From Polyangia bacterium (lineage in GTDB: Bacteria; Myxococcota_A; Polyangia; Fen-1088), in contig DASXOE010000020.1 of NCBI GenBank assembly GCA_036494575.1, positions 4,638-68,637 on the forward strand: a DNA stretch of 64,000 nucleotides. The letters run 5' to 3'. The position numbers were made by a program, and so were the translations under genes. Each line of letters begins with the position of its first letter. Within the stretch, counting starts at the first letter, position 1. The notes below the pieces were generated by a model, which did no database searches, had not been told where the DNA came from, and saw only the letters and a program-made list of their open reading frames with translations. This document shows, piece by piece, positions 15,065 to 61,537 of the stretch.

Positions 15065-15091
15065 GGGAAGGCGAGGGTCCTACCGCGGAAA

Positions 15092-20513: not shown

Positions 20514-20741
20514 TGCCCCACCTTCGTGCTACAAGGTACTACATTGGCGACTCGTGGCGCTACACCTAGTAGCGACTAGAAACCCGTGTTACGCAACACA
20601 GGTCCTGCAGACCGTAAGCCCTGACAGCGGCTAACGTTTGTGTGTGACGCGTTGCGCGCACCGCCATCTTCGGTCCCCTCAGATGCATCGAGGCACACCG
20701 AAGTGCATCGAACGGAGCCGGGCGCGGCTTGAGCGCCGATC

Positions 20742-25675: not shown

Positions 25676-25785
25676 CGGCGGAAACCGTAACCCATCCCGG
25701 TCGAGGCGGCGAGGGGTTGACGGAGCGGATTCTGAATCCGAACCACGACCTTGCGTAGGTCGCTTCGCGATGTTGGAATGCGTCC

Positions 25786-27384: not shown

Positions 27385-27484
27385 AGGTCGCGCCCGAAGG
27401 CCGCGATGCGAGGAGCGGGCGTCGCATCGTCGACCGAACCGACGCCGCTTGCGGGGCCGCGGGCCCGCGGCTAAGTTTTCGCCG

Positions 27485-40819: not shown

Positions 40820-40826
40820 CCGGGCC

Positions 40827-43216: not shown

Positions 43217-43274
43217 TGGAATCTAGGGAAACCGGACGGTTAGGAGCCTCTGCACGGCGGTCGGAAGATATCAT

Positions 43275-44087
43275 ATGCACGGATCATCGCCACAGCGAGC
43301 CCGGGAGGGGGACAAAGCAATGCGAAGCGGCGAATCGTCCGTGACTGCGCTCGGCAGCGCGGACGTCCATGTGTGGCTCCTGGAGGCGCCCGAGGCCGCC
43401 AGCGACGCGCGCGCCGAGCTCTGCGCCGCGCTGCTCTCGGCCGACGAGCGCGCGCGGATGGGCCGCTTTCATTTCGCCGGTGACCGGCGGCGGTATCTGT
43501 TCGCCCACGCGCTCGTGCGCACGACCCTGTCCCGGTACGCGCCGGGCACGCCGCCCGCGCGCTGGCGATTTCGCACGAACGCCCACGGGCGTCCGGAGCT
43601 GCCGCCGGAAGACGGGGGACCGCCGTTGCGATTCAACCTCTCCCACACCGACGGGCTGGTGGCCTGCGCCGTGGCGCTCGACCGGGACGTGGGCGTCGAC
43701 GTCGAGCACCTCTGGCCAGCGACGTTCGACCTCGGCCTCGCCCGGCATCACTTCGCGCCCGCGGAGGTGGCCGGCCTGGAGGCGCTGCCGCCGGAGGCCC
43801 GGCGGGCCCGCTTCTTTGCGCTGTGGACGTTGAAAGAGGCGTACATCAAGGCCAGGGGGCTGGGGCTCGCGCTGCCGCTCGAGCGGTTCGCCTTCGACCT
43901 CGAGGGCCCCGCCATCTGCGTCCGCTTCGATCCCGAGCTGGGGGATGAGCCCGAGCGCTGGCACTTCGCGCGCCTGCAGCCCACCGCCGTTCACGCGCTG
44001 GCGTTGGCCGCCCGCCGCGTGCCCGGAGAAACCCTGAGGGTGCGCCACTGGCCGCCGCCCTCGGATTTTCCTGGGATCGACTCGTGA
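43275..44087 (+). CDS. Sfp-type 4'-phosphopantetheinyl transferase
   Basis: 270 aa. Contains LSADERARMGRFHFAGDRRRYLFAHALVR, FNLSHTDGLVACAV, GVDVE and FALWTLKEAYIKARG. Confidence 0.85.
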   Translation: MHGSSPQRAREGDKAMRSGESSVTALGSADVHVWLLEAPEAASDARAELCAALLSADERARMGRFHFAGDRRRYLFAHALVRTTLSRYAPGTPPARWRFRTNAHGRPELPPEDGGPPLRFNLSHTDGLVACAVALDRDVGVDVEHLWPATFDLGLARHHFAPAEVAGLEALPPEARRARFFALWTLKEAYIKARGLGLALPLERFAFDLEGPAICVRFDPELGDEPERWHFARLQPTAVHALALAARRVPGETLRVRHWPPPSDFPGIDS

Positions 44088-44190
44088 GATTTGCCGGCGG
44101 CGGTCGGAATACCTTGCACGGCGCCCTGGCCAAACGCACATCAGCGGGAGAGACTGAGCGCGGGCGCTCGGAAGGGCGCCGGGGGATCAC

Positions 44191-47100
44191 GTGATGAGCG
44201 TCGATCAACATAGGGTCCAGCAGGGTGCGACCGACGGACGGGCCGATGGGCCCGACGACGACGGCGACGATGCGCTGGTCGCCATCATCGGCATGGCGGG
44301 GCGCTTCCCGGGCGCGCCCGATCTCGAGCGGTTCTGGCGCAACCTCGCCGCCGGCGCCGAATCGATGCGGCACTTCACCGACGAGGAGCTCCTCGCGGCC
44401 GGCGAATCGCCGGCCGCGCTGCGTGATCCCGGGTACGTGCGCGTCTGTCCCGTGCTCGACGACATCGACAAGTTCGACGCCGGCTTCTTCGGCTTTTCGC
44501 CCAAGGAGGCGGCCATCAGCGATCCGCAGCACCGGCTCTTCCTCGAGATCGCGTGGGAGGCCTTCGAGAACGCCGGGTACGACCCGGGCCGCGCGCCGGG
44601 CGTCGTGGGCGTGTGGGCCGCCTGCGGCCTCAACGCCTATCTCATGCACCACCTCGTCACGAACCCGGACCTCATGGAGTCGGTGGGCGAGTGGCTGCTG
44701 CGTCACACGGCGAACGACATGAACTTCCTCGCGACGCGCGTCTCCTATGAGCTCGACCTGCGCGGCCCCAGCATGAACGTCCAGACCGCCTGCTCCTCGA
44801 CGCTCGTGACGCTGCACCTGGCCGTGCAGAGCCTGCTCGGGCGCGAGTGCGACCTAGCGCTCGCGGGCGGCTCGACGATCTCGCTGCCCCAGCGCGGCTA
44901 CATCTACAAGGAGGGCGAGATCCTCTCGGCCGACGGGCACTGCCGGCCGTTCGACGCGCGCTCGAAGGGCACGCTTTTCGGGAGCGGGGCCGGGGCCGTC
45001 GTTCTCAAGCGGCTCGCCGACGCGCGGCGCGACCGCGACAACGTCCTCGCGCTCGTGCGCGGCTCGGCCATCAACAACGACGGCTCGCAGAAGGTCGGCT
45101 ACCTGGCGCCCAGCGTCGAGGGTCAAGCGCGCGCCATCGCCGAGGCGCTCTCGGTCTCTGGCGTCGACGCCGGCACGATCTCGTACGTCGAGGCGCACGG
45201 CACGGGAACGCTCATCGGCGATCCGATCGAGGTGAGCGCCCTGACGCAGGCCTTTCGCGCGCACACGGATCGGCGCGGCTTCTGCGGCCTCGGCTCGCTC
45301 AAGTCGAACATCGGGCACCTCGGCGAGGCGGCCGGCGTCGGCGGGATCATCAAGACCGTCCTCGCGCTCGGACACGGCCAGATCCCGCCCAGCGCCGGCT
45401 ACGAGATCCCGAACCCCAACATCGACTTCGCGGCGAGCCCCTTCTACGTCTCGGATCGCCTGCGCGACTGGCCGCGCGGAGTGGGACCACGCCGCGCGGG
45501 CATCACGGCGCTGGGCGCCGGCGGCACGAACGCGCACGTCGTCCTCGAGGAGGCGCCCGCCGCGCCGCCTGGCGCGCCGGCGCGCGCATGGCAAGTGCTG
45601 CCGCTCTCGGCGCGGTCGCCGGCGGCGCTCGAGGCCGCGACCAAGCGGCTCGCCGCGCACCTCCGGGCGACGCCGGCGCTGCCGCTCGCCGACGCCGCGT
45701 TCACGCTGCAGGTCGGACGGCGCGCCTTCGAGCACCGCCGCGTCGCCGTGTGCCGCGACGGCGCCGACGCCATCGCCGTCCTCGAGGGGGCGGATCCGCG
45801 CCGGCTGCTCACGCAGGCGACGACGCGCAAGCAAGAAGCCGTCGAGGTGGTCTTCTCGTTCCCGGGCGCGGGCGCGCAGCACGCGGGCATGGGTCAGGAG
45901 CTGTACGAGACCGAGCCGCTCTTTCGCGCGGCGGTCGACGAGTGCCTCGAGCACGTGCGGCCCGAGCTCGGGATCGATCTGCGTCCCCTGCTCTACCCGG
46001 CCCGTGAACCCGGCGCGCGCGAAGCCGCGGACGCGCGCCTCGAGTCGCCGTCGCTCGCGCTGCCGGCGCTCTTCGCCACCGAGTACGCCCTCGTGAAGCT
46101 GCTGCGGTCGTGGGGGATCGCGCCCGCGGCCATGATCGGCCACAGCTTGGGCGAGTACGTCGCCGCCTGCGTGGCCGGCGTGTTCTCGAGCCGCGACGGC
46201 ATGCGCCTCGTCGCCAAGCGCGGGCTCCTCATCGAGACCCTCCCGCCTGGCGGCATGCTCGTCGTCCCTCTGCCGGCCGGGGAGCTCGCTCCGCTCTTGC
46301 CCGAGCTCGGGCTTTCGATCGCGGCCGTGAACACCCCCGAGCTGTGCGTGGCGTCGGGGCCCGTCGACGCCATCGCCGCGCTCGAGGCGACGCTCGCCGC
46401 GCGCGAGATCGACGCCCGCCGCCTGCACATCATCATGCCGGCGCACTCGACCATGCTCGACCCGATCCTCCCCGAGTTCGAGCGCTTCTGCCGGACGATC
46501 GCCTTCAGCGCGCCCACGCTGCCCTACCTGTCGAACCTGAGCGGCACGTGGATCACGGCGCGCGAGGCCTCCGATCCGCAGTACTGGGTGCGCCACCTGC
46601 GCCACACGGTGAGGTTCGCGGACGGCCTCGCGACGCTCATCGGACAGAAGAAATCGTGCTTGCTGCTCGAGGTCGGGCCGGGCCGGACGCTGACGAGCCT
46701 GGCGACGATGCAGCCCGCCAAGCCGGCGGGCGCCCTGCCAACGATGATTCATCCGAAGGAGACCGGCTCGGGCGTCGCGTTCCTGCTGGGGACGCTCGGC
46801 CAGCTCTGGCTCGCGGGCGCCGAGCTCGACTGGGAGAGGGGGCACGGGACGGCGGCGCGGCCGCGGCGCGTGCCGCTGCCCACGTACCCGTTCGAGCGGC
46901 AGCGCTACTGGATCGAGCGCGGGCAGGCGACGGCCGCCCGCGCGACCGCGCCGGGCGCGCTCAAGAAGGTCCCGGACCTCGCCGACTGGTTCTGGCTGCC
47001 GTCGTGGACGCGCACGGCGTCGCCGCCGGCGGCTGCTCCCCAGGGCGCGACCACGCTGCTCTTCGTCGAAGAGAGGGAGGAGAGCGCGGACGATGCCCGC

Positions 47101-49845
47101 GCGGACGAGCCCGGGTTGGGCGCGGCGCTCGCGGCGCGGATGCCGGGCTCTGTGACGGTGCGCGCCGGCGCGGGATTCGCGCGCACGCCCGACGGTGGCT
47201 TCACGGTGGCGCCGGGCCGACGCGCCGACTACGAGCAGCTCCTCGCCGCGCTGCGCGGCGACGGGAAGCTGCCCGACGAGGTGGTTCACCTCTGGTCGGT
47301 CGCGGGGCCGCGCCGCGCGACCGGCGACGCGCTCAGTGGCTACGAGCGCGCCTTCGAGCTCGGCTTTGCGAGCCTGCTCTGCCTCGCCCAGGCCCTCGCC
47401 CTCGAAGATCGGCCGGCGCGCTTGACGATCGTGTCGAGCGGGCTTCATCGCATCGGCGCCGAGACCGAGCGCGATCCCTTGAAGGCGCTGCTGCTCGGAC
47501 CGGCGCGCGTCATCGGCGCCGAGCTGCCCGCGATCGCGAGCCGCAGCGTCGACGTGTCGTGGCCCGTGGAGGCGCCCTGGCAGCGGCGGCGCGTCGTCGA
47601 GCAGGTGCTCGCCGAGCTCGGCGCGCCGCGCGCGGAGGATCCGGCGCGCGCGGAGAAGGTGATCGCGTACCGGGGCGCGGAGCGCCTCGTGCAGTCCTTC
47701 GAACGCGCGCCGCTGCCGGAGCGCGCCGAGGGGGCGCGCGGGTTTCGCGAAGGGGGCGTTTACCTCGTCACGGGCGGGCTGGGCGGCATCGGCGCCACGC
47801 TCGCGGAGCACCTGGCCCGCACGGCGCGCGCGAAGCTCGTGCTCGTGGGCCGGTCGGCGCGTCCCGAGCGCGAGCGCGCGCTGACGGATCTCGGCGCCGA
47901 CTTGCTCGTCGTGCAGGCGGACGTCACCGATCTCGGGCAGATGCGCGCCGCGATGAGCGCGGCGCGCGCGCGCTTCGGCCCCGTGACGGGCATCATTCAC
48001 GCCGCCGGCGTGCTCGAGGACGAGCTCATCCTGCTCAAGACCGTCGAGTCGGCGGCGCGCGTGATGGCGCCCAAGGTCAAGGGCGCGCTCGTGCTCGACG
48101 AGCTCGCGCGCGAGAGTGAAGTGCCGCCGGAGCTCTTCCTGCTGTTCTCGTCGGTGAGCGCCGTCCTCGGATTGCAGGGCCAGGTCGACTACACGGCGGC
48201 GAACGCCTTCCTCGACGCGCTCGCGCTCGAGCGCGCGGGCCGAACGCCCGAGACGAGCCTGGCCATCGACTGGGGCGCCTGGCGCGACGTCGGCATGGCC
48301 GCGACGATGGCCGCGCGCGGCCAGACGCGCGCGGGCACCGCGCCGGCCGCGAGCGGCGACTGGCTGGGCACGCGCCGGGCCGACGGCGCGTTCGAGCGCG
48401 CGCTCGGGGTCGACGACTGGTGGCTGCTCTCCGAGCACGTCGTCAAGGGGGGCGACGCTCTCATCCCCGGCACGGGCTTCCTCGAGCTCGCCCGCGAGGC
48501 GGCGACGCGCGCCCTGCCCGGCGCTGGGGCCCTCGAGCTCGATGACGTCGTCTTCCTGGCGCCCTTCGCGCTCGCGGGCGGGCAGCGCCGCCACCTGCGC
48601 GTCGCCGTGGGCGCCGACGGAGAGCTCGCCATCGACAGCGTCGCGGCGGACGGCGCGAGCGGGGAGGTTCGCCATGTTGCGGGGCACGCCGCGCGCGTCA
48701 CGGTGGCAGCGCCGGCGCCCGTGGATGTCGCGGCTCTGCGCGCCCGCTGCGCCGAGGCGCGCCCCGTGGGCGCGGGCGGCTTCCTGCCCCAGCGCTTCAT
48801 GAGCTTCGGCCCGCGCTGGGGCAACATCGTGGCCATCGGAGCGGGCGGCGGCGAGGCGCTCGTCGACCTCGAGCTCCCGGCCTCCTTCGCGGGCGATCTC
48901 ACGACGCACCTCCTGCACCCCGCGCTGCTCGACATGGCGACTGGCGCCGCGCAGGCGCTCATCCCCGGCTTCGACGCCGAGCGCGATTTCCACGTGCCGT
49001 TCTCTTACGGGCGCGTCCGCCTGCACGCGCCGCTGTCGCGGCGGCTCACGAGCCACGTGCGCTACCGCAAGGACAGCGCCAAGGACCTCCCCGCCTTCGA
49101 TGTCGTGCTCTTCGACGAGGGCGGCCGCGTGCTCGTCGAGATAGCGGGCTTCGTCATGAAGCGCGTCTCCGACCGGGGCGCGCTCGCAGGCGCCGCGGCG
49201 GGCGGGGCGGCGGAGCGCGCGGCGCCCGCCGGCGGCGCCGAGGCGTTGGCCACCGAGCTGCGCGAGGCCGCGTTTCGGGAGGGCATGCTGCCGGCCGAGG
49301 GCCTCGAGGCGCTCGAGCGCATCGTGTCCGCGCGGCTCGGCCCGGAGGTCATCGCGAGCTCGCTCGATCTGAACGAGTGGCTCGCCGCCACGGCGCGCGC
49401 CAACCACCCCACGGCGACGGCCGCCACCGACGCTTCAGCGAGCGCCGTGGCGCCGGCGGCGCGCCCGTCGGTCAGCACGACCTTCGAGGCGCCGCGCGGC
49501 GAGGAAGAGGAGCGCGTCGCCGGCCTGTGGCGCTCCATGCTGGGCGTCGAGCAGGTCGGGGTGCACGACAACTTCTTCGAGCTCGGCGGTCATTCGCTGC
49601 TGCTCACGCAGACGATCACGCGGCTGCGCAAGCTCGCGGGCGTCGACATCCCGCTCGGCGCCCTGCTGTCGAAGCTCACGATCGCCGAGATGGCCGCCGA
49701 GGTGGCGCGCGTGAAGGCCGCCGGCAAGAGCGCTGCGCCGCCGCCCATGCGCGCCGTTTCGCGCGACGCCTACCGGGCCAAGAGATCGGCCGTCGGCGAC
49801 GGTGGGCCTCGCCCCTCCCCGCCCGACGAATCGCAAGACGAGTGA
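44191..49845 (+). CDS. Type I polyketide synthase, single module KS-AT-(psiKR)-KR-DH-T
   Basis: 1884 aa. KS: TACSS (Cys codon 44791-44793), EAHGTGT, NIGHLGEAAG; roughly 44269-45555. AT: GHSLGE (Ser codon 44144+2000, i.e. 46144-46146); roughly 45847-46835; the specificity motif reads MPAHS, which is non-canonical. KR: TGGLGGIG (from 47770) and YTAAN (Tyr codon 48190-48192). DH after the KR: LSEHVVKGGDALIPGTG (His codon 48436-48438) and LHPALLDMATGAAQ. Carrier: FFELGGHSLL (Ser codon 49594-49596). Confidence 0.95.
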   Translation: MMSVDQHRVQQGATDGRADGPDDDGDDALVAIIGMAGRFPGAPDLERFWRNLAAGAESMRHFTDEELLAAGESPAALRDPGYVRVCPVLDDIDKFDAGFFGFSPKEAAISDPQHRLFLEIAWEAFENAGYDPGRAPGVVGVWAACGLNAYLMHHLVTNPDLMESVGEWLLRHTANDMNFLATRVSYELDLRGPSMNVQTACSSTLVTLHLAVQSLLGRECDLALAGGSTISLPQRGYIYKEGEILSADGHCRPFDARSKGTLFGSGAGAVVLKRLADARRDRDNVLALVRGSAINNDGSQKVGYLAPSVEGQARAIAEALSVSGVDAGTISYVEAHGTGTLIGDPIEVSALTQAFRAHTDRRGFCGLGSLKSNIGHLGEAAGVGGIIKTVLALGHGQIPPSAGYEIPNPNIDFAASPFYVSDRLRDWPRGVGPRRAGITALGAGGTNAHVVLEEAPAAPPGAPARAWQVLPLSARSPAALEAATKRLAAHLRATPALPLADAAFTLQVGRRAFEHRRVAVCRDGADAIAVLEGADPRRLLTQATTRKQEAVEVVFSFPGAGAQHAGMGQELYETEPLFRAAVDECLEHVRPELGIDLRPLLYPAREPGAREAADARLESPSLALPALFATEYALVKLLRSWGIAPAAMIGHSLGEYVAACVAGVFSSRDGMRLVAKRGLLIETLPPGGMLVVPLPAGELAPLLPELGLSIAAVNTPELCVASGPVDAIAALEATLAAREIDARRLHIIMPAHSTMLDPILPEFERFCRTIAFSAPTLPYLSNLSGTWITAREASDPQYWVRHLRHTVRFADGLATLIGQKKSCLLLEVGPGRTLTSLATMQPAKPAGALPTMIHPKETGSGVAFLLGTLGQLWLAGAELDWERGHGTAARPRRVPLPTYPFERQRYWIERGQATAARATAPGALKKVPDLADWFWLPSWTRTASPPAAAPQGATTLLFVEEREESADDARADEPGLGAALAARMPGSVTVRAGAGFARTPDGGFTVAPGRRADYEQLLAALRGDGKLPDEVVHLWSVAGPRRATGDALSGYERAFELGFASLLCLAQALALEDRPARLTIVSSGLHRIGAETERDPLKALLLGPARVIGAELPAIASRSVDVSWPVEAPWQRRRVVEQVLAELGAPRAEDPARAEKVIAYRGAERLVQSFERAPLPERAEGARGFREGGVYLVTGGLGGIGATLAEHLARTARAKLVLVGRSARPERERALTDLGADLLVVQADVTDLGQMRAAMSAARARFGPVTGIIHAAGVLEDELILLKTVESAARVMAPKVKGALVLDELARESEVPPELFLLFSSVSAVLGLQGQVDYTAANAFLDALALERAGRTPETSLAIDWGAWRDVGMAATMAARGQTRAGTAPAASGDWLGTRRADGAFERALGVDDWWLLSEHVVKGGDALIPGTGFLELAREAATRALPGAGALELDDVVFLAPFALAGGQRRHLRVAVGADGELAIDSVAADGASGEVRHVAGHAARVTVAAPAPVDVAALRARCAEARPVGAGGFLPQRFMSFGPRWGNIVAIGAGGGEALVDLELPASFAGDLTTHLLHPALLDMATGAAQALIPGFDAERDFHVPFSYGRVRLHAPLSRRLTSHVRYRKDSAKDLPAFDVVLFDEGGRVLVEIAGFVMKRVSDRGALAGAAAGGAAERAAPAGGAEALATELREAAFREGMLPAEGLEALERIVSARLGPEVIASSLDLNEWLAATARANHPTATAATDASASAVAPAARPSVSTTFEAPRGEEEERVAGLWRSMLGVEQVGVHDNFFELGGHSLLLTQTITRLRKLAGVDIPLGALLSKLTIAEMAAEVARVKAAGKSAAPPPMRAVSRDAYRAKRSAVGDGGPRPSPPDESQDE

Positions 49846-49864
49846 GACGAACGAGACGAATGAC

Positions 49865-52800
49865 ATGACGTCAGATCGCGACGAAAGATATCCCCTCTCG
49901 CCGGTGCAGGCCGGGATGCTGTTCAATCGGCTGAGCGCGCCGGCGAGCGGCGTCGACATCGAGCAGATGATCGCGGGCCTGCCCGAGGAGGTGGACGCCG
50001 CCGCGCTCGAGCAGGCGTGGCGTCTGGTCGTCGAACGCCATGCCGTGCTGCGCACGTCCTTCTCCTGGGGCGGCCCCGGCGCGCCCGAGCAGCGGGTGGC
50101 GGCCGCCGTCGAGGTGCCCTTCGCCCTTCACGACTGGCGCGGCGTGCCGAGCGCCGAGCAGGACGAGCGGCTCGAGGCCTTCCTCGTCGACGATCGCCGC
50201 CGGGGCTTCGACCTCGCGCGCGCGCCCCTGCTGCGGTTCGCGCTGTTCCGACGCGGCGCCGACGACGCCCAACTCGTTTGGACGTTCTTCCACGGCGTCC
50301 TCGACGGCGGCTCGTTCGTCGCCATAGTCAACGAGGCCTTCGACGTCTACGAGGCGCTCCGGCGCGGCGAGAAGCCGAGCGCGCCCGCGCCCCTGCCCTA
50401 CCGCGCCCACATCGAGTGGCTCGAGGGCGAGCTCCGCGCCAAGGCGGAGGCGGCGCGCGCCTTTTGGCACGCGCGGCTCGAGGGCTTCGCGGCGCCCAAC
50501 GTGCTGACGGCGGCGGGCTCCGACGGGGCGGCGCCGCGCGGCCACGGCGAACGCGCGTTCCGGCTGTCGCACGGCGAGACCGCCCGCCTGAGGGCGTTCG
50601 GCGAGGCCGCCGGCCTCACGCTCAACACGTTCGTCCAGGGGGCGTGGGCGCTCGTCATCGCGGCGTCGACGGGCGAGGACGACGTGGTCTTCGGCGCGAC
50701 GCGCGCGTGCCGGCGCTCTTCGGTGCCGGGCGCCGAGGGTATGGCGGGCGTCTTCATCAACACGCTGCCGCTCCGCCTGGCCGTCGACGCGGCCGCCTCG
50801 GCCGGCGACTGGCTGCGCGTCGTCCGCGAGCGGCACCGCGAGGTGCGCGCCTTCGAGCACACGCCGCTCGCCGACGTGCTGGCCGCGAGCGACGTGCCGG
50901 GCGACCAGAGCCTGTTCGAGAGCATCATCGTCTTCAACGAGCGGCTCATGGAGGCCGTCATGCAGGCGCAGGGGGGTGCCTGGGCGCGCCGGACCTTCCG
51001 CTGGATCGAGCAGACGAACTTCCCCATCACGCTGTTCGGTTACGCGGAGGACGAGCTCTTGCTCAAGCTCTCGTACGATCGCGCGCGCCTCGACGACGAA
51101 GCAGCGACGCGCTTGACCGAGCGCCTCCGCGCCGTGCTCGCGGCGCTCGCGGCGAACCCCGAGGCGCGCATCGGCGACCTGCCGACGGTCGCGCCCGAAG
51201 AGCGCGCGCTCGTCGTCGAGCGCTGGAACGACACCCGGGTCGACGTACCGCGCGACCGGTGCGTGCACGAGCTCATCGAGGCGCAAGCAGCGGCGACACC
51301 CGACGCCGTGGCCGTCGTCTACCGCGACGCCCGCCTGACGTACCGCGAGCTCGACCAGCGCGCCGACGCCCTCGCGCGGACCTTGCAGGCGCGCGGCGTG
51401 GGACCCGACACGCTCGTGGGCTTGTTCGTCGACCGCTCGCTCGAGATGGTGGTCGGTCTCCTCGGCATCCTCAAGGCCGGCGGCGCCTACGTGCCGCTCG
51501 ATCCCGAGTACCCGACGGAGCGGCTCGCCATGATGCTCGAGGACTCGCAGGCGCGCGTCATCGTGACGAGGACCGCGCTGCGCTCGGCCCTGCCGCCGCG
51601 CGCGGACGCCGAGATCGTGACGGTCGAGCTCGCAGAAGCGTCCGCGCCCGCGGCCGGAGCCCCGACGCTCCACCGCGCCGTCGCGCCGCACAACCTCGCG
51701 TACGTGATCTTCACGTCGGGCTCAACGGGCAGGCCGAAGGGCGTGATGATCGAGCACCGCAACGTCATCAACTTCTTCGCGGGCATGGACGCGCGCATCG
51801 GCGCGGACCGCGGCGTGTGGCTCGCCGTCACGAGCATCTCCTTCGACATCTCGGTGCTCGAGCTCCTGTGGACGCTCGCGCGCGGCTTCGAGGTCGTCGT
51901 GCATGGCGACGGCGATCGCCGCGCCGCCGCCGAAGGGAGCGCGCGCTCCGAGCCGGGTGACGGGCGCGGGCGCATGGACTTCAGCCTCTTTTACTTCGCG
52001 AGCGCCGCTGGCGCCGCGGTCGGGCAGCGCTACCGGCTGCTGCTAGAGGGCACGAAGTTCGCCGACGCGCACGGCTTCTCGGCCGTGTGGACGCCCGAGC
52101 GACACTTCCACGAATTCGGCGGCATCTATCCCAACCCGTCGGTCACGGGCGCCGCGCTCGCCGTGCTGACACGCAACGTGCAGATCCGCGCGGGCTCGGT
52201 CGTGCTGCCGCTGCACAACCCCATCCGCGTCGCCGAGGAGTGGTCGGTCGTCGACAACCTGTCGGGCGGACGCGTGGGCCTGTCGTTCGCGTCGGGCTGG
52301 CACGCCAACGACTTCGCGCTCATGCCCGAGAGCTATGCCGACCGCAAGAACGTCATGATCCGCGGCATCGAGACCGTGCGGCGCCTGTGGCGCGGCGAAT
52401 CCGTCCCGGCGCGCAGCGGCACGGGCGCCGAGATCCAGGTGCGCGTCCTGCCGCGCGCCGTGCAGGCCGAGCCGCCGCTGTGGGTCACGGCCGCCGGCAG
52501 CCCCGACACGTTCAGGTTCGCGGGCGAGCTCGGCGCCAACGTCCTCACCAACATGCTGGGCCAGAGCGTGGCGGATCTCACCGCGAAGATCGCCGTCTAT
52601 CGCGAGGCGCGCCGAGCGCACGGCCACGCCGGCCCCGGGCAGGTCAGCCTCATGCTGCACACGTTCGTGGGCGTCGATCGCGACGAGGTGCGCGCCAAGG
52701 TGCGCGACCCCTTCATGGCCTACCTCGAGACCTCCACCGACCTCATCAAGAAGGCCAAGTGGGAGTTCCCCGCCTTCGCGCAGCCCGGGAAGGATCGGGC

Positions 52801-55594: not shown

Positions 55595-55625
55595 TGCCCG
55601 CCGCGCGAGCGCCGCGGGGATGCCG

Positions 55626-56525
55626 TCAGGGCGCGCCTGGCCCGAGGCCCGTCAGCTTCTCGCTGACATCCCACAGCCGCGCCGCGACAGCGGCGTCGAG
55701 CGAGCGCGGCGACGAGCGCGCCTCGGCTGAATCGCGGAAGTAGCGGCCGCTCACGCCCTCGAGCGTCGGCGAGGCCGCGACGAACAGGCTCGTCGCGGCG
55801 CCCTCCTTCGGCCCGGGCCTCCCCCGGCGCGTCAGGAAGCGCAGCGGGGCGGGCCGGCCCTCGAAGGCCACGAGCAGGTTCGTGCCGATGACGCCCGGGT
55901 GCAGGCAGTTCGCCGTCACGCCAGTGCCCGCGAGACGCCGCGCGAGCTCGAACGTGAACAGCATGTTGGCGTGCTTCGATTGATAGTAGGCGTCGAGGCG
56001 CTCGTAGGGCCTTTTCTCCCTCCCGAGATCGTCGAAGTCGAGGACGGCCATGCCCTCGACCTGCGAGGCGACGTTGACGATCCGCGCAGGCGCGCTCGCC
56101 TTCAAGGCGTCGAGCAAGAGGTTCGTCAGCAAGAACGGGGCGAGGTGATTGACGGCGAGCTGAGTCTCGAGTCCGTCGACGGTCGTCGAGCGCTTCGGCG
56201 TGATCACGGCCGCGTTGTTGACGAGCACGTGCAGGTGGTCGTGGCGGGCGCGGACCTCGGCGGCGAGCCGGCGCACCTCCGCCTGCGACGACAGGTCGGC
56301 CACGAGGAGCTCGACGTCGCGGCGCCCCGTGCGCCGCCCGATCTCCGAGACGGCGTCGCGGCCGCGCGCCGCATCGCGCCCGGCCACGATCACCGTGGCG
56401 CCACGCTCGGCGAGGCCGAGCGCCGTCTCGCGCCCGATGCCGCTCGTGGCGCCCGTGACGAGGCAGATCCGTCCCGCCATCGAGGGCGCGGAAGCCGGGG
56501 CGCCCCCGGGAGAAGCGCCGCTCAT
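55626..56525 (-). CDS. Short-chain dehydrogenase/reductase (retinol-dehydrogenase/WWOX-like classical SDR)
   Basis: 300 aa from the ATG at 56525, which overlaps the upstream stop (ATGA). Contains ICLVTGATSGIGRETA, NNAAV, NVASQ and YYQSKHAN (YxxxK). Confidence 0.85.
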   Translation of the reverse strand: MSGASPGGAPASAPSMAGRICLVTGATSGIGRETALGLAERGATVIVAGRDAARGRDAVSEIGRRTGRRDVELLVADLSSQAEVRRLAAEVRARHDHLHVLVNNAAVITPKRSTTVDGLETQLAVNHLAPFLLTNLLLDALKASAPARIVNVASQVEGMAVLDFDDLGREKRPYERLDAYYQSKHANMLFTFELARRLAGTGVTANCLHPGVIGTNLLVAFEGRPAPLRFLTRRGRPGPKEGAATSLFVAASPTLEGVSGRYFRDSAEARSSPRSLDAAVAARLWDVSEKLTGLGPGAP

Positions 56526-57403
56526 GGCGCCGCCCGCGCGACGCGCGCCCCGCCAGCGACCAGCGTCGCGCGCGCCCAGGCGTCGATGGACGCGAAAAGC
56601 GCGTCTTGCTGGCTCCGCAGCGTGAGGGTGTGATCCGCGATGTTCATGAACTCGACTCGAACGCGCGGATGACCGCGCAGCGCCGGGAAGGTGTCGCCGA
56701 ACTGTCCCGCGTAATTGTAGAACTCCGTCATACCGCCTCCCGTGAACACGAAGAAGAGCTCGGCGTCGCGCGCCAAGATTGCTTTCAGCTCCGCGAGGCA
56801 GATTTCCCGCGGCGGGAACTCGCGCACGAAGCCCACGCCTCCGGGGTTGTCGCCCGCAGGCGCCCCGCCAGCCTGCGCGCCGGCACGGGCCTTCCACCAG
56901 GAGAGCGGGCTCGCGGCGACGCGGCGCCAGCTGCGCGCGCTCAGCAGGTGGCGTCCGTACTGGCGGACGTAGTAGCCGTTCGTGCGATAGGCGGCGCCGT
57001 CGATGAGCACGGCGCCCACGACGCGCGCGTCCTCGTGCGCGAGACGCTGCGCGTTCTCCGCGCCCGCGCACAGGCCCATGGGAACGAACCGGTCGGCGAT
57101 CCCAGACGCCGCGAGAAAGTCCATGGCCTCGATCCCCTCGGCGAGCATGCTCTGCTCGAGGCTCAGCTCGTCGCGGCGCGGCTCGCTCTCGCCAAGCCCC
57201 GAGTAATCGAAGCGCAACACGGGCAGGCCGGCCGCCGCCAGCTGGCGCGCGAGCGTCACGTAGAAACGGTTGGGACCGACGCGGTGAAGCAGCCCCGCGT
57301 TGAGCAGAAGGACGGCGGGCCGCCCCGCGGCGCCGCCCGCTGGCTCGGTGAGAATGCCCGACAGCGACTTGGCGGCGCCGAAGGTGACGGGACGCTCCTT
57401 CAC
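56522..57403 (-). CDS. Alpha/beta-fold hydrolase with Cys at the nucleophile elbow (G-L-C-A-G); resembles exosortase-A-system hydrolase 1
   Basis: 293 aa from the GTG at 57403 (GTGA overlap with the upstream stop). Contains PVLRFDYSGLGESE, FVPMGLCAGAENA and a His candidate in NIADHTL. Confidence 0.75.
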   Translation of the reverse strand: MKERPVTFGAAKSLSGILTEPAGGAAGRPAVLLLNAGLLHRVGPNRFYVTLARQLAAAGLPVLRFDYSGLGESEPRRDELSLEQSMLAEGIEAMDFLAASGIADRFVPMGLCAGAENAQRLAHEDARVVGAVLIDGAAYRTNGYYVRQYGRHLLSARSWRRVAASPLSWWKARAGAQAGGAPAGDNPGGVGFVREFPPREICLAELKAILARDAELFFVFTGGGMTEFYNYAGQFGDTFPALRGHPRVRVEFMNIADHTLTLRSQQDALFASIDAWARATLVAGGARVARAAP

Positions 57404-58197
57404 GACTCGCTCCTCGACAGCCACGCGGCGATGAGGTCCTGCGTCTGGCGCGCGCCCGCCGTGCCCTCGACGCGGTGTTGCTTCCACACCTCGGCCTCGG
57501 CGAGCACCTCGTGATCGACGCGCGCGCCCCGCGCCGCGAGCCTGGCGTCCAGGCGGTCCGCTCCTTCGAGCGCGGCGCGCTCGATGATGAGGGCCCGCGG
57601 CGCCGTGCGCGGCAGGTGGGCGAGGTCGACGGCGGCGATCGAGCGCCGCATCGCCTCGGTCACGCGGAACCCCAGGATCTCGTCGCCGCCGTCGGAGACC
57701 TGCGCGGGCGGAAGGCGGCGCCAGGTGGCGTAGGAGTCCCGCCAGGCGCGTTGAGCCGCGAAGCCCGCCTCGAGGTACTTCGCCCCCTCTGCGACCGGTT
57801 CCCAGAGCACGAGGCGGCCGACGTCCTCGCGCCGCGCGGCCGCGAGCGCGGCGAGCGTCGCGCCGAAACGAAGCCCGAGCAGCGTGACGTGCGCGACGCC
57901 CTTGCCGCGCTTGGCCTCCTCGACGGCCGCGGCGACGTCACCGAGCCACACGTCGACGTCGCCGTGCTCGGTGGCGCCGGCCGAGTCGCCCGCCCCCGAG
58001 TAGTCGAACCTCAGCACGGAGAAGCCGTCCTTGGCGAGACGCACGGCCAGCTGGCGCAACACCCGGTGCGCGCGGATGGCCTCTTGCCACAGCGGCGCGC
58101 ACACGACGAGCGCGCGCGACGTGGCCGCGGCCCGCGGCGGCTCGTGCCAGACCCCGAACAGCGAGCGCGCTGGTTCGCCGAAGTAGAAAGCCGGCAC
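57400..58197 (-). CDS. Alpha/beta-fold hydrolase-like protein with Arg at the nucleophile position (G-L-R-F-G); resembles exosortase-A-system hydrolase 2
   Basis: 265 aa. The GTG start lies 4 nt after the NRPS stop. Contains SVLRFDYSGAGDSAG and HVTLLGLRFGATLAALAA. Confidence 0.7.
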   Translation of the reverse strand: MPAFYFGEPARSLFGVWHEPPRAAATSRALVVCAPLWQEAIRAHRVLRQLAVRLAKDGFSVLRFDYSGAGDSAGATEHGDVDVWLGDVAAAVEEAKRGKGVAHVTLLGLRFGATLAALAAARREDVGRLVLWEPVAEGAKYLEAGFAAQRAWRDSYATWRRLPPAQVSDGGDEILGFRVTEAMRRSIAAVDLAHLPRTAPRALIIERAALEGADRLDARLAARGARVDHEVLAEAEVWKQHRVEGTAGARQTQDLIAAWLSRSES

Positions 58198-58201
58198 GAC
58201 C

Positions 58202-61200
58202 TCACTCCTTCGAGATCATGCGCTTGAGCGCTCCGAAGACCCCGCGCGCCTTGGGCGCATCGAGGCCGCGCGCCTGATCGCACTTGGCGGCGACCTGGGC
58301 GAGGTTCTGGAGAATGAGCTCGGCGACGCTGAGGCGCTTTTTCAACCGCTGCTCGATGTGGTGCACGACCTGCGTCGACAGCAGCGAGTGCCCGCCCAAA
58401 TCGAAGAAGTTGTCGTAGATCGACACGCGCGGCACCCCCAGCACCTGCTGCCAGATCTCGGCGATGGCCTGCTCGGTCGGCGTGCGCGGGGCCACGAAGC
58501 TGTCGACGACGCCGTCGACCGCGCCGGCTCCGGCGCCGCCTTGGACGGCGGCGGCCTGCGGCGCCGGCAGCGCCTTGCGATCGACCTTGCCGTTCGGCGT
58601 CAGCGGCAGCCGCTCGAGCGTGACGAAGGCGCTCGGGACCATCGGCTCCGGGAGCCGCTCGCGCAACATCCGGCGCAGGTCGGCGGCCGCGGGCACGGCG
58701 CCCGCGAGGTACGCGACGAGGCGCTGGTCGCCCGCCTGGCCTGATTCACCGGGCCGCGCGACGACGACCGCCTCCCGAGCGCCCGACACCTCGCGCAAGA
58801 CGAGCTCGACCTCGCCGAGCTCGACGCGGTGGCCGCGGATCTTGACCTGGTGATCGAGGCGCCCGAGGAACTCGACGCGGCCGTCGCCGAGATAGCGGCA
58901 GAGATCGCCCGTGCGGTAGAGCCGGCCCGCTCCGAACGGGTTCTCCACGAACCGCTCGGCCGTGAGCTCCGGACGCCCCAGGTATCCGCGCGCGACGCCC
59001 GCGCCCCCGATGTACAGCTCCCCCGGGACCCCGATGGGCACCGGCTCGCGGTGGGCGTCGAGAATGTAGAGCGACGTGTTGGCGAGGGGCCGGCCGATCG
59101 GGATGGGTTGCGAGACGCCGCGCGACAGCGCGTCTCGATCGACCCGGAACGTCGTCGAATAGATCGTCGTCTCCGTCGGGCCGTACCCGTTGAAGAGGTC
59201 GCCCCCGAACGCTGCCAGCAGGTCGCGCGCGAGCGCGGGCGGCAGCGCCTCGCCGCCCAGAATCATGACCTCGAGCCCGCCGAGCGCCGCGCGGGCGGTG
59301 GCGTCGGCGACGAGCAGGCCCGCCATCGACGGCGTGCACTGAAAATGCGTCACGCCGTGGGCCGACACGGCGGCCGCGAAGGCGCGGGCCTTGTCGTCCT
59401 CCTCCGCCTGCACGATCACGGTGAAGCCGCGCGTGACCGTCCACAAGAGCTCGAGCACCGAGATGTCGAACGAGAGGCTCGTCACAGCGAGCCAGACGCC
59501 GGGCTTCTTGTGATCTGGCTTCGCGTGATCTGGCTTCGCGTGATCTGGCTTCGCGCCGAGCGCGGCGTCCATGCCGGCGAACAGGTTCGAGGCCTGGCGG
59601 TGCTCGAGCATCACGCCCTTGGGAGTGCCCGTCGAGCCGGACGTGTAGATGACGTAGGCGAGATTGTCGGGCCGCGCGCTCGCCTTCGCGTCGCCGTCGT
59701 CGTCCAACCGGCCATCGTCGCGGTGGCGCGCGATGGCGCTCGCCTCGGCGTCGAGGCAGAGGGCGCGCGCCGCGCCGAGCGGCAGCTCGGCCCCGATCGA
59801 GGAGACCGTCACGACGACGCCGACGCGCGAGTCGCCGATCATCTGCGCGAGCCGCGCCTTGGGGTAGGCGGGATCGAGCGGGAGGTACGCGCCGCCCGCC
59901 TTGAGGACCGCGAGGACGGCGACGACGATGTCCGGGCCGCGCGGCAGGCACACCCCGACGAGCCCGTCCGGCCCGACGCCGAGCTCGCGCAAGTGCCGCG
60001 CGAGGCGATTGGCGCGACGCTCGAGCTCGTCGTAGGTCAGCGCGTCTTCTCCCGTGCGCACGGCGACTTGCCCCGGCGTGCGCGCGGCCTGCCGCTCGAA
60101 TTCGGCGTGAATGCAGCTCGGCGTCGTGGCCGTCGCCGTCTCGTTCCACTCCGTGAGCACCCGCCGGCGCTCCGCGTCCGTGATCACGGGGAGCCGCGAG
60201 AGCCGCTCGTCGGGATGCGCGACCCCGGCCGCGATGACGTGGGCGAAGTTGGCGATGAAGCGCGAGATCGTCTCCCCGTCGTAGAGGTCGGAGCTGTACG
60301 TGAAGTAGCCCACGAGACCGTCGCGGGCCTCCTCGAGCTGCGCGAGGAGGTCGAACATCGAGTCGCCGTGGGGCGCGTCGACGGACGTCACCGTCACGCC
60401 AGGCAGCGTGAGCGCCGTGTCCGGCGCCACGAGGTAGCCGATCATGATCTGGAAGAACGGGTTGTGGCTGGCGTCGCGCGCGGGGCGCAGCACCTCGACG
60501 ATCTTCTCGAACGGCACGTCTTCGTGGGCCGCCGCGCCCGCGATGACCTCGCGCGCGCGCCCGAGCAGCTCGCGAAACGTGGGATCGCCCGCCAGGCTCA
60601 CGCGCAGCACGACCGTCGCGGCGTAAAAACCGACCGACTCCTCGATCTCGGTGCGTCCGCGGTTGCCGAAGGGCGACCCGACGAGAACGTCGTCCTGTCC
60701 GGTGTAGCGCTGGAGGAGCAGCGCGAACGCCGCGAGCAACCCGGAGAACGAGGTGGTCTTCTCCTGGCGGCACAGCGCCGCGAGCGCCGCGGCGCCCTCG
60801 CGCGTCGCGAGGTGCGCGCGCAGCCGGTGGCCGCGTCCGCTCGGCGTCGCCGGCCGCGGCCGATCGGACGGCAGCTCGGCCGATGGCAGCTCGCCGCTCA
60901 GCCGCTCGCGCCAATAGCTCACGAGGCGCTCGAGCTCCGGGCCCTGCAGCAATTCCTTTTGCCACAGCGCATAGTCGGCGTACTGGATCGCGACATTGGG
61001 CAGCGGCGAAGGCCGGCCGGCCGCGAAGGCCGCGTAGAGAGCCGACAGCTCGTTGAAGATGATCGAGATCGCGATGCCGTCGACGACGATGTGGCTCGCG
61101 TTGACGAGGAACACGTGGTCGTCCGCGCCGAGGCGCACGAGCCGGGCCCGCACGAGCGGACCCACCTTGAGATCGAACGGCGCCGACGCCGCCTCGGCGA

Positions 61201-61537
61201 GGATGCGCCCGAGCTCCGCCTGGCGCGCCGGGGCCGACAGCGGCGACAGATCCTCGACGGGCAGCGGGATCGAGAGCGCGGGCGCGACGACCTGGACGGG
61301 CACGCCGGCCTCGGAGGCGAAGGTCGTGCGCAGCGACTCGTGGCGCGCGACGACCTCATTGAGGGCGCGCTCGAGCACGGCCGCGTCGATCGGACCTTTC
61401 AGGCGCGCCGCCGTGGGAACGTTGTACGCGCCGCTCCCCGGCTGGAGTTGGTCCAAGAACCAGAGCCTCTGCTGCGAATACGACGTCGGGAAGACGAAGA
61501 CCTCGTCGTCACCACCGCTGGGAGCATCCGCGTTCAT
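58202..61537 (-). CDS. NRPS module C-A-T (uninterrupted glycine-type A domain, paralogue of the 49865-55594 module)
   Basis: 1111 aa. C: FPTSYSQQRLWFLDQL, NASHIVVDGIA. A: LAYVIYTSGSTGTPKG, SFDISVLE, NGYGPTETT, YRTGDLCRY, GRLDHQVKIRGHRVELGEVE, LPEPMVPS, NGKVDRK. T: FFDLGGHSLLS. No TE or R domain. Confidence 0.95.
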   Translation of the reverse strand: MNADAPSGGDDEVFVFPTSYSQQRLWFLDQLQPGSGAYNVPTAARLKGPIDAAVLERALNEVVARHESLRTTFASEAGVPVQVVAPALSIPLPVEDLSPLSAPARQAELGRILAEAASAPFDLKVGPLVRARLVRLGADDHVFLVNASHIVVDGIAISIIFNELSALYAAFAAGRPSPLPNVAIQYADYALWQKELLQGPELERLVSYWRERLSGELPSAELPSDRPRPATPSGRGHRLRAHLATREGAAALAALCRQEKTTSFSGLLAAFALLLQRYTGQDDVLVGSPFGNRGRTEIEESVGFYAATVVLRVSLAGDPTFRELLGRAREVIAGAAAHEDVPFEKIVEVLRPARDASHNPFFQIMIGYLVAPDTALTLPGVTVTSVDAPHGDSMFDLLAQLEEARDGLVGYFTYSSDLYDGETISRFIANFAHVIAAGVAHPDERLSRLPVITDAERRRVLTEWNETATATTPSCIHAEFERQAARTPGQVAVRTGEDALTYDELERRANRLARHLRELGVGPDGLVGVCLPRGPDIVVAVLAVLKAGGAYLPLDPAYPKARLAQMIGDSRVGVVVTVSSIGAELPLGAARALCLDAEASAIARHRDDGRLDDDGDAKASARPDNLAYVIYTSGSTGTPKGVMLEHRQASNLFAGMDAALGAKPDHAKPDHAKPDHKKPGVWLAVTSLSFDISVLELLWTVTRGFTVIVQAEEDDKARAFAAAVSAHGVTHFQCTPSMAGLLVADATARAALGGLEVMILGGEALPPALARDLLAAFGGDLFNGYGPTETTIYSTTFRVDRDALSRGVSQPIPIGRPLANTSLYILDAHREPVPIGVPGELYIGGAGVARGYLGRPELTAERFVENPFGAGRLYRTGDLCRYLGDGRVEFLGRLDHQVKIRGHRVELGEVELVLREVSGAREAVVVARPGESGQAGDQRLVAYLAGAVPAAADLRRMLRERLPEPMVPSAFVTLERLPLTPNGKVDRKALPAPQAAAVQGGAGAGAVDGVVDSFVAPRTPTEQAIAEIWQQVLGVPRVSIYDNFFDLGGHSLLSTQVVHHIEQRLKKRLSVAELILQNLAQVAAKCDQARGLDAPKARGVFGALKRMISKE
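59510..59555 (-). repeat. Perfect 15-bp x3 in-frame tandem repeat encoding (AKPDH)3 in the A3-A4 loop of the NRPS
   Basis: The plus strand reads gtgatctggcttcgc three times in a row. The protein reads GAKPDHAKPDHAKPDHKKPG, where the paralogue has only GADRG. Confidence 0.95.

Follow-up and report, generated by a model that had tools for sequence, protein, structure and literature searches.

Luciferase-like monooxygenases (MOx) embedded in glycine-activating modules are familiar from the myxothiazol and melithiazol assembly lines, in which the terminal Gly-MOx modules of MtaG and MelG are accompanied by a thioesterase (TE) and are thought to release a terminal amide via α-hydroxylation of glycine. 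Formylated glycine, in turn, is the starter of the oxazolomycin, conglobatin and phthoxazolin lines, where it is provided by formyltransferase-adenylation-peptidyl carrier protein modules (F-A-PCP; OzmO, CongA and PtxE) (PMC5764310). A four-gene cluster encoding a nonribosomal peptide synthetase (NRPS), a polyketide synthase (PKS), a glycosyltransferase as well as a phosphopantetheinyl transferase (PPTase) is present in 28 of 57 Roseobacter genomes, and its product is uncharacterised (PMC4337385); no later characterisation of this product was found in the literature that we searched. Here we describe a locus that is related to these systems and lies in a 64-kb stretch of DNA (contig DASXOE010000020.1 of the Polyangia bacterium assembly GCA_036494575.1), which we refer to in its full length as the window.

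The locus consists of a block of genes for a PPTase, a PKS, two NRPSs (NRPS1 and NRPS2), two α/β-hydrolase-fold proteins (hyd1 and hyd2) and a short-chain dehydrogenase/reductase (SDR), next to an exopolysaccharide (EPS) island. This block encodes a hybrid NRPS–PKS line that is orphan and has no TE; it belongs to a widespread family defined by a Gly(MOx) module and a PKS with ketosynthase (KS), acyltransferase (AT), ketoreductase (KR), dehydratase (DH) and carrier (T) domains. It is probably a new variant of that family, in which a pair of hydrolases with Cys and Arg, respectively, at the nucleophile elbow substitutes for the TE. An interpretation made earlier from the DNA letters (the original prediction) had seen in it a thiotemplate line fused to the EPS island and served by an exosortase-type hydrolase pair; as laid out below, our analysis supports it in part.

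A TE-less assembly line of a cross-phylum family

Genes in the window (G+C content about 70%) were called from third-position GC and a list of open reading frames (ORFs), and the genes called separately on a Logan contig agreed with the outcome. Domains were assigned with Pfam and NCBIfam profiles, whose curated trusted cutoffs were used to decide family membership. The gene order and domain content proposed in the original prediction were recovered (Table 1). The KS domain of the PKS carries the active-site cysteine (TACSS motif) along with intact HGTGT and NIGH motifs, GHSLG is found in the AT domain, DH keeps its histidine, and the motif of the carrier domain is GGHSL. The condensation (C) domains of the two NRPSs keep the second histidine of their motif (FHGVLDG in NRPS1, SHIVVDG in NRPS2), and the A4 to A10 motifs of the adenylation (A) domains as well as the carrier-domain Ser motifs were all found. 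The block thus holds the components of a hybrid NRPS–PKS line, namely a PPTase and, with intact catalytic motifs, the KS, AT, C, A and carrier domains. As had been predicted, the three synthases carry no TE, reductase (R), loading or extra C domain; Pfam found no Thioesterase, NAD_binding_4 or further Condensation match in them.

The A domain of NRPS1 contains two insertions, a luciferase-like MOx between A4 and A5 (TIGR04020, 495 bits; cutoff 244) and a methyltransferase between A8 and A9, whose motifs (VLEIGCGTG, NEMSRFRYDVVL and VPNARV) we take to be of the N-methyltransferase (N-MT) type. The protein ends at its T domain and a 42-aa tail, without a TE. To read the substrate specificity codes, we aligned the A domains to the sequence of the GrsA Phe-activating A domain, the ten positions of which gave DAWTIAAICK as a control. 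The codes are DILQLGMVWK for NRPS1 and DILQIGGIYK for NRPS2, while the NRPS2 orthologues of the relatives L002, L012 and L082 (L and P numbers are our handles for loci or contigs and for proteins) have DILQLGMIWK or DILQLGVIWK. These are codes of the glycine type, which supports the two glycine modules of the original prediction.

Direct reading of the sequence bore out the predicted junctions within the block. The convergent NRPS1 and SDR genes are separated by 31 bp (55595-55625), a 4-nt gap (GGTC) lies between the stop codon of NRPS2 and the GTG with which hyd2 starts, and the hyd2/hyd1 and hyd1/SDR pairs overlap by GTGA and ATGA, respectively. The divergent gap between the Wzz gene of the EPS island and the PPTase gene amounts to the predicted 58 bp when measured to the longest PPTase ORF, and to about 103 bp for the likely start at Met16; the PPTase probably begins at this Met16 (position 43320), judging from its orthologues, whose lengths are 235-258 aa and whose intergenic regions measure 91-157 bp. 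The whole block was found again in at least eight independent Polyangia contigs, and its gene order is therefore not a chance arrangement.

A scan with NRPS1 (one genome per species) yielded 80 loci, and a subsequent tblastn search with the domains of the window showed that the Gly(MOx)-T and KS-AT-KR-DH-T modules travel together: 54 loci have the PKS DH domain along with the Gly(MOx) module. These family loci span Rhodobacterales, Planctomycetota, Burkholderiales, Anaerolineae, Gemmatimonadota and Acidobacteriota, with Paracoccus, Rhodobacter, Cognatishimia, Novipirellula, Rhodopirellula, Ramlibacter and Hyphomicrobium among the genera. Their A codes are glycine-type, and the monooxygenase embedded in the glycine module is an FMN-type luciferase-like enzyme. 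Identity between the window and the family is 45-60% for the MOx and 52-65% for the KS, compared with 40-49% between the KS of the window and KSs outside the Gly(MOx) unit. The order of the PKS domains, with KR ahead of DH, is unusual and is kept across phyla.

Pfam analysis of the Paracoccus and Novipirellula representatives revealed a formyltransferase-A-T protein with an inserted luciferase-like monooxygenase (LLM), F-A(LLM)-T, plus KS-AT-KR-DH-T-TE; the Paracoccus locus continues with genes for a PPTase, a GT4, a priming transferase (Bac_transf) and a GT2. An N-terminal F domain is present in 49 of the 54 family loci, while this position is taken by a Condensation domain in the window and in close relatives. 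The Polyangia lineage differs from the usual family member in that C replaces F, an N-MT and NRPS2 have been added and the TE is replaced by hyd2/hyd1.

Set against the MtaG and MelG modules, NRPS1 shares the position of the luciferase-like MOx between A4 and A5 of a Gly A domain in a myxobacterial hybrid line. Unlike them, however, it carries an N-MT, has no TE directly after a terminal Gly-MOx-PCP unit and, judged by homology, hands its product to a KS. With the Roseobacter cluster the block shares the Gly A domain with luciferase-like MOx and T, the KS-AT-KR-DH-T protein with the same KR-before-DH order, an Sfp-type PPTase, a PKS gene ahead of the NRPS gene, and glycosyltransferase and priming-transferase genes alongside. 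The Roseobacter-type loci, in contrast, have an F domain where the window has C, lack the N-MT and the second NRPS module, and carry a C-terminal TE in place of hyd2/hyd1 and the SDR. The logic of the wider family, a capped glycine module that passes to a malonate-extending KS, is that of OzmO, CongA and PtxE; unlike the window, the oxazole systems have no MOx insertion, rely on trans-AT PKSs and use a dedicated ATP-pyrophosphatase cyclodehydratase (PMC5764310), whereas the window has no F domain. In the literature searched, no product has been characterised for the F-A(MOx)-T/KS-AT-KR-DH-T-TE family, and, as the original prediction had supposed, we found no characterised example of the arrangement seen in the window.

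Two family loci deserve separate mention. In Gemmatimonas locus L019, a gene fusion of homocysteine S-methyltransferase and methylenetetrahydrofolate reductase (L019:31-1764) lies directly upstream of the F-A(MOx)-T gene, which fits a folate-dependent supply of formyl or one-carbon units for the F domain. In a metagenome-assembled genome of the Gemmatimonadota (L045:14164-17127), the A(MOx) domain breaks at about position 16275 and the remainder of A plus T is encoded by the other strand, owing either to a genuine inversion or to an assembly error.

A Cys/Arg hydrolase pair probably in place of the thioesterase

A TE is found in 46 of the 54 family loci and the hyd2/hyd1 pair in seven; the two never coincide, and a single locus lacks either. 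T is the last domain of the PKS in Gemmatimonas L019, where the start of hyd2 lies 4 nt ahead of the PKS stop codon. Outside the core family, we looked up six further contexts of hyd2 homologues (37-75% identity; a 75% relative, a JGI contig, KSB1, L097, L098 and L099), and all of them, like the Gemmatimonadota loci, adjoin NRPS/PKS genes. In most contexts looked up, hyd2 comes after the last carrier-protein gene or after a PPTase gene, and the order hyd2-then-hyd1 is fixed. Because TE and pair never occur together and because the homologues adjoin NRPS/PKS genes, the pair is most likely a release module, and apparently an undescribed release route. With the pair in the place of the TE, the missing TE is accounted for.

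The active-site residues of the two proteins differ. The hyd1 family is large (790 representative clusters at E ≤ 1e-30), and in an alignment of 144 of these representatives the elbow G-L-C112-A-G is accompanied by conservation of Cys112 and Asp135 at 90% or more each and by an invariant His258. In the AlphaFold model of hyd1 (pLDDT 91), Cys112 sits between strand 106-111 and helix 113-124, a canonical elbow. The elbow of hyd2 reads G-L-R-F-G, with Arg110 in 110 of 111 homologues, Cys33 in all 111 and no conserved His; Cys33 lies at the end of strand β3 in a model with a pLDDT of 94. Neither protein has the GxSxG motif of serine TEs (hyd1, GLCAG; hyd2, GLRFG) or matches PF00975; both match only Hydrolase_4 and Abhydrolase_1. 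Sequence and fold searches of the PDB returned no close relative of hyd1 or hyd2 and no TE-like or polyhydroxyalkanoate (PHA)-synthase-like neighbour, the best matches being generic Hydrolase_4 esterases, PETases and feruloyl esterases (TM 0.5-0.7).

The original prediction took the two hydrolases to be mutually unrelated, which does not hold. Both are of the Hydrolase_4 type, hyd2 also matches TIGR03100 (57 bits), and in the natural fusion P0274 the hyd2 part (residues 1-236, GLRVG) and the hyd1 part (residues 303-591, GLCTG) cross-match at about 31-32% identity. They are distant paralogues, of which hyd2 is probably a non-nucleophilic partner that likely acts in a complex with hyd1. The GTGA overlap of the two genes and the P0274 fusion speak for their physical coupling. 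Judging from PHA synthases and Cys-type TEs, an acyl-enzyme formed on the cysteine of hyd1 would suit acyl transfer no less than hydrolysis. By analogy, hyd1 resembles PhaC and the Cys-type TEs in its GxCxG elbow, its putative Cys-His-Asp triad, its α/β fold and its presumed thioester substrates; it differs from them in that no sequence or close structural kinship is detectable and in that it appears to be paired with an Arg-elbow paralogue. Nothing relevant to Cys-type release pairs acting in trans was found in the literature searched.

Could the pair instead have an accessory or editing role of the type II TE kind, or serve as a scaffold, with release brought about by a C domain, non-enzymatically or by a TE encoded elsewhere? 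The lack of a nucleophile and of a conserved His in hyd2 would suit such a role, as would an orphan hyd2/hyd1 copy located away from any NRPS on a 192-kb contig. We nevertheless regard it as very improbable, given the strict complementarity of TE and pair, the position of the pair directly after the last carrier-protein gene, in several loci with overlapping start and stop codons, and the retention of the full Cys-His-Asp triad by hyd1 across the aligned representatives.

The orphan copy (L085:10001-11660) resides on ENA contig_106228_np1212, which is shared with L082/L096. It comprises a second hyd2 (P0028, 69% identity), and behind it a hyd1 that tblastn recovers as two overlapping pieces and that looks frameshifted or decayed. 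P0028 is far from any NRPS/PKS genes and near genes for HTH regulators; about 9 kb beyond, the locus has a DDE_3 transposase. That it marks a second cluster was considered and ruled out. A further variant, P0247 (659 aa), is a hyd1 homologue fused to an additional C-terminal domain of about 350 aa.

Order of the modules

The original prediction let the line run PKS→NRPS1→NRPS2, a scheme whose first step is probably wrong, as in the family it is the Gly(MOx) module that feeds the KS. The glycine module lies immediately ahead of the KS in Planctomycetota and Ramlibacter. In Paracoccus, the F-A(MOx)-T gene comes after the PKS gene with its TE, which is the gene order of the window, and gene order in the family therefore does not give the functional order. 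Because the glycine module precedes the KS in relatives and the KS of the window is closer to the family KSs than to others, we think that NRPS1 feeds the PKS, with its C domain acting as a cap in the manner of the formyltransferase elsewhere. The absence of a loading module, to which the original prediction had drawn attention together with that of the TE, is real within the window, but it finds an explanation in this glycine module, just as the pair explains the absence of a TE.

NRPS2 can be placed last because it forms a tight operon with hyd2 and hyd1 and because, in KSB1, a terminal Gly-type C-A-T module likewise precedes the hydrolase pair. We favour the resulting order NRPS1→PKS→NRPS2 at a little short of even confidence. 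The order PKS→NRPS1→NRPS2 is unlikely, NRPS2→NRPS1→PKS, which is collinear with the genes in Gemmatimonadota L011, slightly more so, and any other order is improbable.

Relation to exosortase-associated hydrolases

In the XrtA/PEP-CTERM systems, a carrier protein and a decarboxylase are involved, and the named companion of the exosortase-A hydrolases 1/2 is the acyl-CoA ligase family TIGR03098. These hydrolases (TIGR03100 and TIGR03101) are the curated families to which the original prediction had assigned hyd1 and hyd2. They are indeed the best curated matches and align over the full length, but both proteins fail the trusted cutoffs by about two-fold: hyd1 reaches 79.5 bits against a TIGR03100 cutoff of 168.45, and hyd2 100.1 bits against a TIGR03101 cutoff of 202.75. 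The same is true of their relatives. TIGR03100 matches 141 of the 144 sequences in the hyd1 alignment (hyd1 together with its nearest representatives; best E 4.5e-35) and TIGR03101 all 90 aligned sequences (hyd2 and 89 homologues; best E 2.1e-38), and no sequence attains either cutoff. Since the proteins of the window and their nearest homologues all score below the cutoffs, hyd1 and hyd2 are, on this profile evidence, to be regarded as sister clades tied to thiotemplate lines and not as members of the exosortase-A equivalogs. By the standard that the original prediction had itself set, failure of the TIGR03100/TIGR03101 trusted cutoffs, such scores refute membership, but not a shared mechanism.

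Other components of the exosortase system are also missing from the window. No ORF scanned across the 64-kb window matched an exosortase family, and a PEP-CTERM regular-expression scan of its six frames gave no credible tail, the sole match falling into a spurious antisense frame. The 64 kb likewise contain no TIGR03099 decarboxylase and no stand-alone acyl carrier protein (ACP), and TIGR03098 is matched only by the A domains of NRPS1 and NRPS2 (218 and 180 bits; cutoff 592), so that no ligase/ACP/decarboxylase set lies next to the hydrolases. Many of the EPS genes match XrtA-system equivalogs best or near-best, yet every one of these matches is below its cutoff (Table 1; in addition, TIGR03027 with 133.5 bits against 180 and TIGR03013 with 182 bits against 393). 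The literature searched held nothing relevant on the XrtA-associated hydrolases; Haft 2006 makes no mention of them.

The likeness that remains is that in both contexts the two proteins are paired with an adenylating enzyme and tied to EPS loci; the window is unlike the exosortase-A system in that the partner is a full PKS/NRPS line and in that exosortase and PEP-CTERM are missing from it. One might still read the locus, as the original prediction did, as a variant XrtA/PEP-CTERM system with bona fide exosortase-A hydrolases, in which the PKS and two NRPS modules, working as PKS→NRPS1→NRPS2, replace the ligase/ACP/decarboxylase set. The top NCBIfam ranking of TIGR03100 and TIGR03101, the best matches of the EPS genes to TIGR03007, TIGR03018, TIGR03108, TIGR03027 and TIGR03088, a gene order collinear with PKS→NRPS1 and NRPS2→hyd2→hyd1, and the terminal Gly-type module ahead of the pair in KSB1 are all compatible with this. 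Yet the scores of hyd1 and hyd2 are less than half of their cutoffs and all the other XrtA-family matches, including those of the nearest hydrolase homologues, are likewise too low, the missing components listed above were not found in 64 kb, and the homologues of the pair sit with NRPS/PKS genes in every context looked up and with an exosortase match in none. Moreover, a line that starts with the PKS leaves its KS without a loader, while the KS of the family is supplied by the Gly(MOx) module. Taken as a whole, we consider a variant XrtA system improbable.

Linkage to the exopolysaccharide island and fate of the product

The EPS island covers about 18.2 to 43.2 kb of the window and its last seven genes (Wzy, AsnB, GT4, AsnB-like, deacetylase, tyrosine autokinase and Wzz) are divergent from PPTase-PKS-NRPS1. 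Synteny of the block with EPS genes in related genomes was a check set by the original prediction, and this junction is kept in five relatives from at least four samples, at PPTase identities of 92% (L007), 68% (L096), 72% and 66% (two JGI contigs) and 59% (L100, from a different sample). The junction is not kept in L002 (61% PPTase identity). Among the relatives with the junction, the Wzy position is kept in L096, the two JGI contigs and L100, the Wzz position in these and in L007; AsnB, GT4, the AsnB-like gene and the adjacent deacetylase are kept in relatives as well, and at the AsnB-like position all relatives with the EPS junction have a protein that consists of Asn_synthase only. The autokinase is 97% identical in L007.

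On the 192-kb contig (L082/L096), glycan genes flank the block on both sides. At its far flank, L082 continues with the EEP-family gene and a GH123-like gene in the same position as in the window (78% identity for the latter), followed by GT4, deacetylase and Pel9A-like genes. Across the family, a gene for a priming polyprenyl glycosylphosphotransferase (PGT), GT4, GT2 or Wza occurs within 10 kb of 29 of the 54 loci, a raw count, and glycosyltransferases are common genes; a priming transferase is present at 11 of the 54. The glycan-adjacent loci come from Paracoccus-type Rhodobacterales, Hyphomicrobium, Ramlibacter and an unclassified proteobacterium. The EPS linkage is hence real and recurrent, but not universal.

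At L098:4742-9391, a GT4 is fused N-terminally to a C-A-T module, with genes for a PPTase, for hyd2 and hyd1 and for a CapK_C-like protein behind it; here, glycosyl transfer is directly and physically linked to a thiotemplate line that employs the hydrolase pair. A metagenome scan with the PPTase alignment returned short contigs and unrelated PPTases only, and contributed nothing on the junction. The receptor capsule cluster for the RcGTA of Rhodobacter capsulatus (rcc01081-01086) was considered as a lead to NRPS/PKS genes in a capsule locus and dropped, as the paper makes no mention of them.

We propose the following scheme. The C domain of NRPS1 would N-acylate an N-methyl-glycine residue, which the monooxygenase may α-hydroxylate; the PKS would add one malonate unit that is reduced and dehydrated to the enoyl stage, and NRPS2 would add glycine. 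Cys112 of hyd1, probably complexed with hyd2, would then take over the chain from the last carrier domain as a thioester and pass it to an acceptor. This acceptor would most likely be a sugar, either of the polymer or of its lipid-linked repeat unit, because the block lies within a Wzx/Wzy-type EPS locus with many deacetylases and amidotransferases and is inherited together with it. As an account of the whole, a TE-less Gly(MOx) line with pair-mediated release and an EPS sugar as the acceptor is our best explanation, and we judge its prospects to be about even. That the product is actually attached to a polysaccharide we hold only tentatively, at clearly less than even confidence. A more specific version is doubtful: hyd2/hyd1 would form a two-subunit offloading transacylase, with hyd1 as the catalytic subunit and hyd2 possibly binding the phosphopantetheine or the acceptor, that attaches the acyl-(N-methyl)glycyl-enoyl-glycyl chain to a de-N-acetylated EPS sugar or to the lipid carrier, and the same logic would extend to the exosortase-A hydrolases 1/2.

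A strong rival is that the block is an ordinary secondary-metabolite cluster with a free lipopeptide- or polyketide-like product, whose thioester is hydrolysed or cyclised by the pair, the EPS synteny being accidental; we consider this a serious possibility, although clearly below an even chance. The TE in 46 orthologous loci implies that most of the family releases its product as a free acid or lactone. This and a number of further observations speak against our own proposal. In KSB1 (L083), an ABC exporter follows the pair within a large PKS/NRPS cluster, which fits a secreted free metabolite. L002 has no EPS neighbour, an ECF-sigma-like gene instead of Wzz lying upstream of its PPTase gene, and no glycan genes were found within 10 kb of the core at the Planctomycetota, Anaerolineae and Gemmatimonadota loci. 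Phylogenetically, the loci from Rhodobacterales are not independent of one another, the hyd2-hyd1 fusion is represented by a single example (P0274), and collinear Gemmatimonadota loci put the PKS last, whereas the pair of the window is operonic with NRPS2. The carrier motif GGHSL, which we tried as a clue to the module order, is identical in TE-type and pair-type loci and does not discriminate. Finally, what the analysis shows is the domain content, the kinship with the family, the complementary occurrence of TE and pair, the active-site residues and the synteny; the module order, the chemistry and the acceptor of the scheme are inferred. What tells against a free metabolite is that the junction has been kept over 59-92% PPTase identity in the five contigs, that glycan genes lie on both sides of the block, and that PGT, GT4, GT2 and Wza adjacency recurs in the distant Paracoccus, Hyphomicrobium and Ramlibacter. 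A Cys nucleophile with a non-catalytic partner is, in view of what is generally known of acyl transfer, also atypical for a simple hydrolytic TE.

Gene map of the window

The features of the EPS island, the block and its downstream flank are compiled in Table 1. The segment 18264-33671 is the variable part of the island, in which TIGR03027 and TIGR03013 are best or near-best. The partner-switching set also holds a small ORF without a family match, and two of the three large ORFs at 24155-29782 have signal-peptide-like or membrane-like N-termini. The true start of the autokinase probably lies downstream of 41645.

The SDR gene is kept 3' of hyd1 in L002, L004, L012 and L082, and is found near the cluster in Gemmatimonadota L045 (49% identity). 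The gene for the protein of the endonuclease/exonuclease/phosphatase (EEP) family, located 48 bp upstream of NRPS2, heads the NRPS2-hyd2-hyd1-SDR operon; its product has a hydrophobic, anchor-like N-terminus and might serve as a phosphodiesterase for a lipid-linked substrate. It is kept in L082 (62% identity), and no homologue was detected in L002. Outside the EPS island, two ABC-F ATPase genes (EttA/Uup-like) are arranged in tandem on the minus strand (13445-16939).

Table 1. Features of the EPS island, the thiotemplate block and the adjacent genes in window coordinates.
Feature	Position	Strand	Evidence
TviC-like epimerase	18264-19217	+	NCBIfam/Pfam
Partner-switching regulator set, directly upstream of the priming transferase	19236-21544		SpoIIE/PP2C phosphatase, HATPase_c_2 anti-sigma-type kinase
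Priming polyprenyl glycosylphosphotransferase	21618-22355	+	NCBIfam/Pfam
GT2	22389-23525	+	NCBIfam/Pfam
Wza-like exporter	23582-24184	+	NCBIfam/Pfam
Three large ORFs (506, 532 and 777 aa)	24155-29782		No Pfam family, at most one weak NCBIfam match
Second GT2	29784-31052	-	NCBIfam/Pfam
Wzx flippase	31174-32691	+	NCBIfam/Pfam
Polysaccharide deacetylase	32688-33671	+	NCBIfam/Pfam
Wzy-type polymerase, first gene of the conserved EPS sub-block	33673-35007	-	PF04932 Wzy_C, E 1.2e-16
AsnB-type glutamine amidotransferase	35017-36906	-	TIGR01536 505 bits (cutoff 267); TIGR03108 633 bits (cutoff 817)
GT4 glycosyltransferase	36910-38148	-	TIGR03088 123 bits (cutoff 409)
AsnB-like protein without glutaminase domain	38138-40018	-	TIGR03108/TIGR01536 matched from profile position ~118 on
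Polysaccharide deacetylase	40043-40969	-	PF01522, E 3e-20
Tyrosine autokinase (PTK) of the co-polymerase	40827-41645	-	TIGR03018 117 bits (cutoff 231)
Wzz chain-length determinant (polysaccharide co-polymerase)	41642-43216	-	TIGR03007 248 bits (cutoff 279)
Divergent intergenic region Wzz/PPTase	43217-43319		Sequence read
PPTase, Sfp-type 4'-phosphopantetheinyl transferase	43275-44087	+	PF01648 (ACPS) and PF22624 (AASDHPPT_N); best NCBIfam match HetI
PKS, type I, KS-AT-KR-DH-T	44191-49845	+	Pfam
NRPS1, C-A(Gly)-T	49802-55594	+	Pfam and TIGR04020
SDR, last gene of the minus-strand operon	55626-56525	-	adh_short; PRK06197-like, 225 bits
hyd1, α/β-hydrolase fold, putative Cys nucleophile	56522-57403	-	Best match TIGR03100, 79.5 bits, below cutoff
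hyd2, α/β-hydrolase fold, Arg110 elbow	57400-58197	-	Best match TIGR03101, 100.1 bits, below cutoff
NRPS2, C-A(Gly-type)-T	58202-61537	-	Pfam
EEP-family protein, membrane-anchored	61586-62674	-	PF03372, E 1.4e-19
GH123-like glycoside hydrolase, at the window edge	62714-63994	-	PF13320, E 6.7e-07

Implications

If the hyd2/hyd1 pair is a release module, it would constitute a new route of thiotemplate release beside those that use a TE, an R domain, a terminal C domain or a penicillin-binding-protein (PBP)-type enzyme. The pair is widespread, as the number of hyd1 clusters attests, and mining tools that seek TE or R domains would currently score lines of this kind as incomplete. The locus bears on the Roseobacter-type NRPS/PKS and glycosyltransferase cluster, which is present in about half of the Roseobacter genomes, and on the hydrolases of PEP-CTERM/XrtA EPS loci, which are so far defined as hypothetical equivalogs. 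Should the transfer to a glycan prove true, the EPS would offer a rare example of polysaccharide decoration with an assembly-line product, with consequences for the biofilms and the EPS chemistry of soil myxobacteria.

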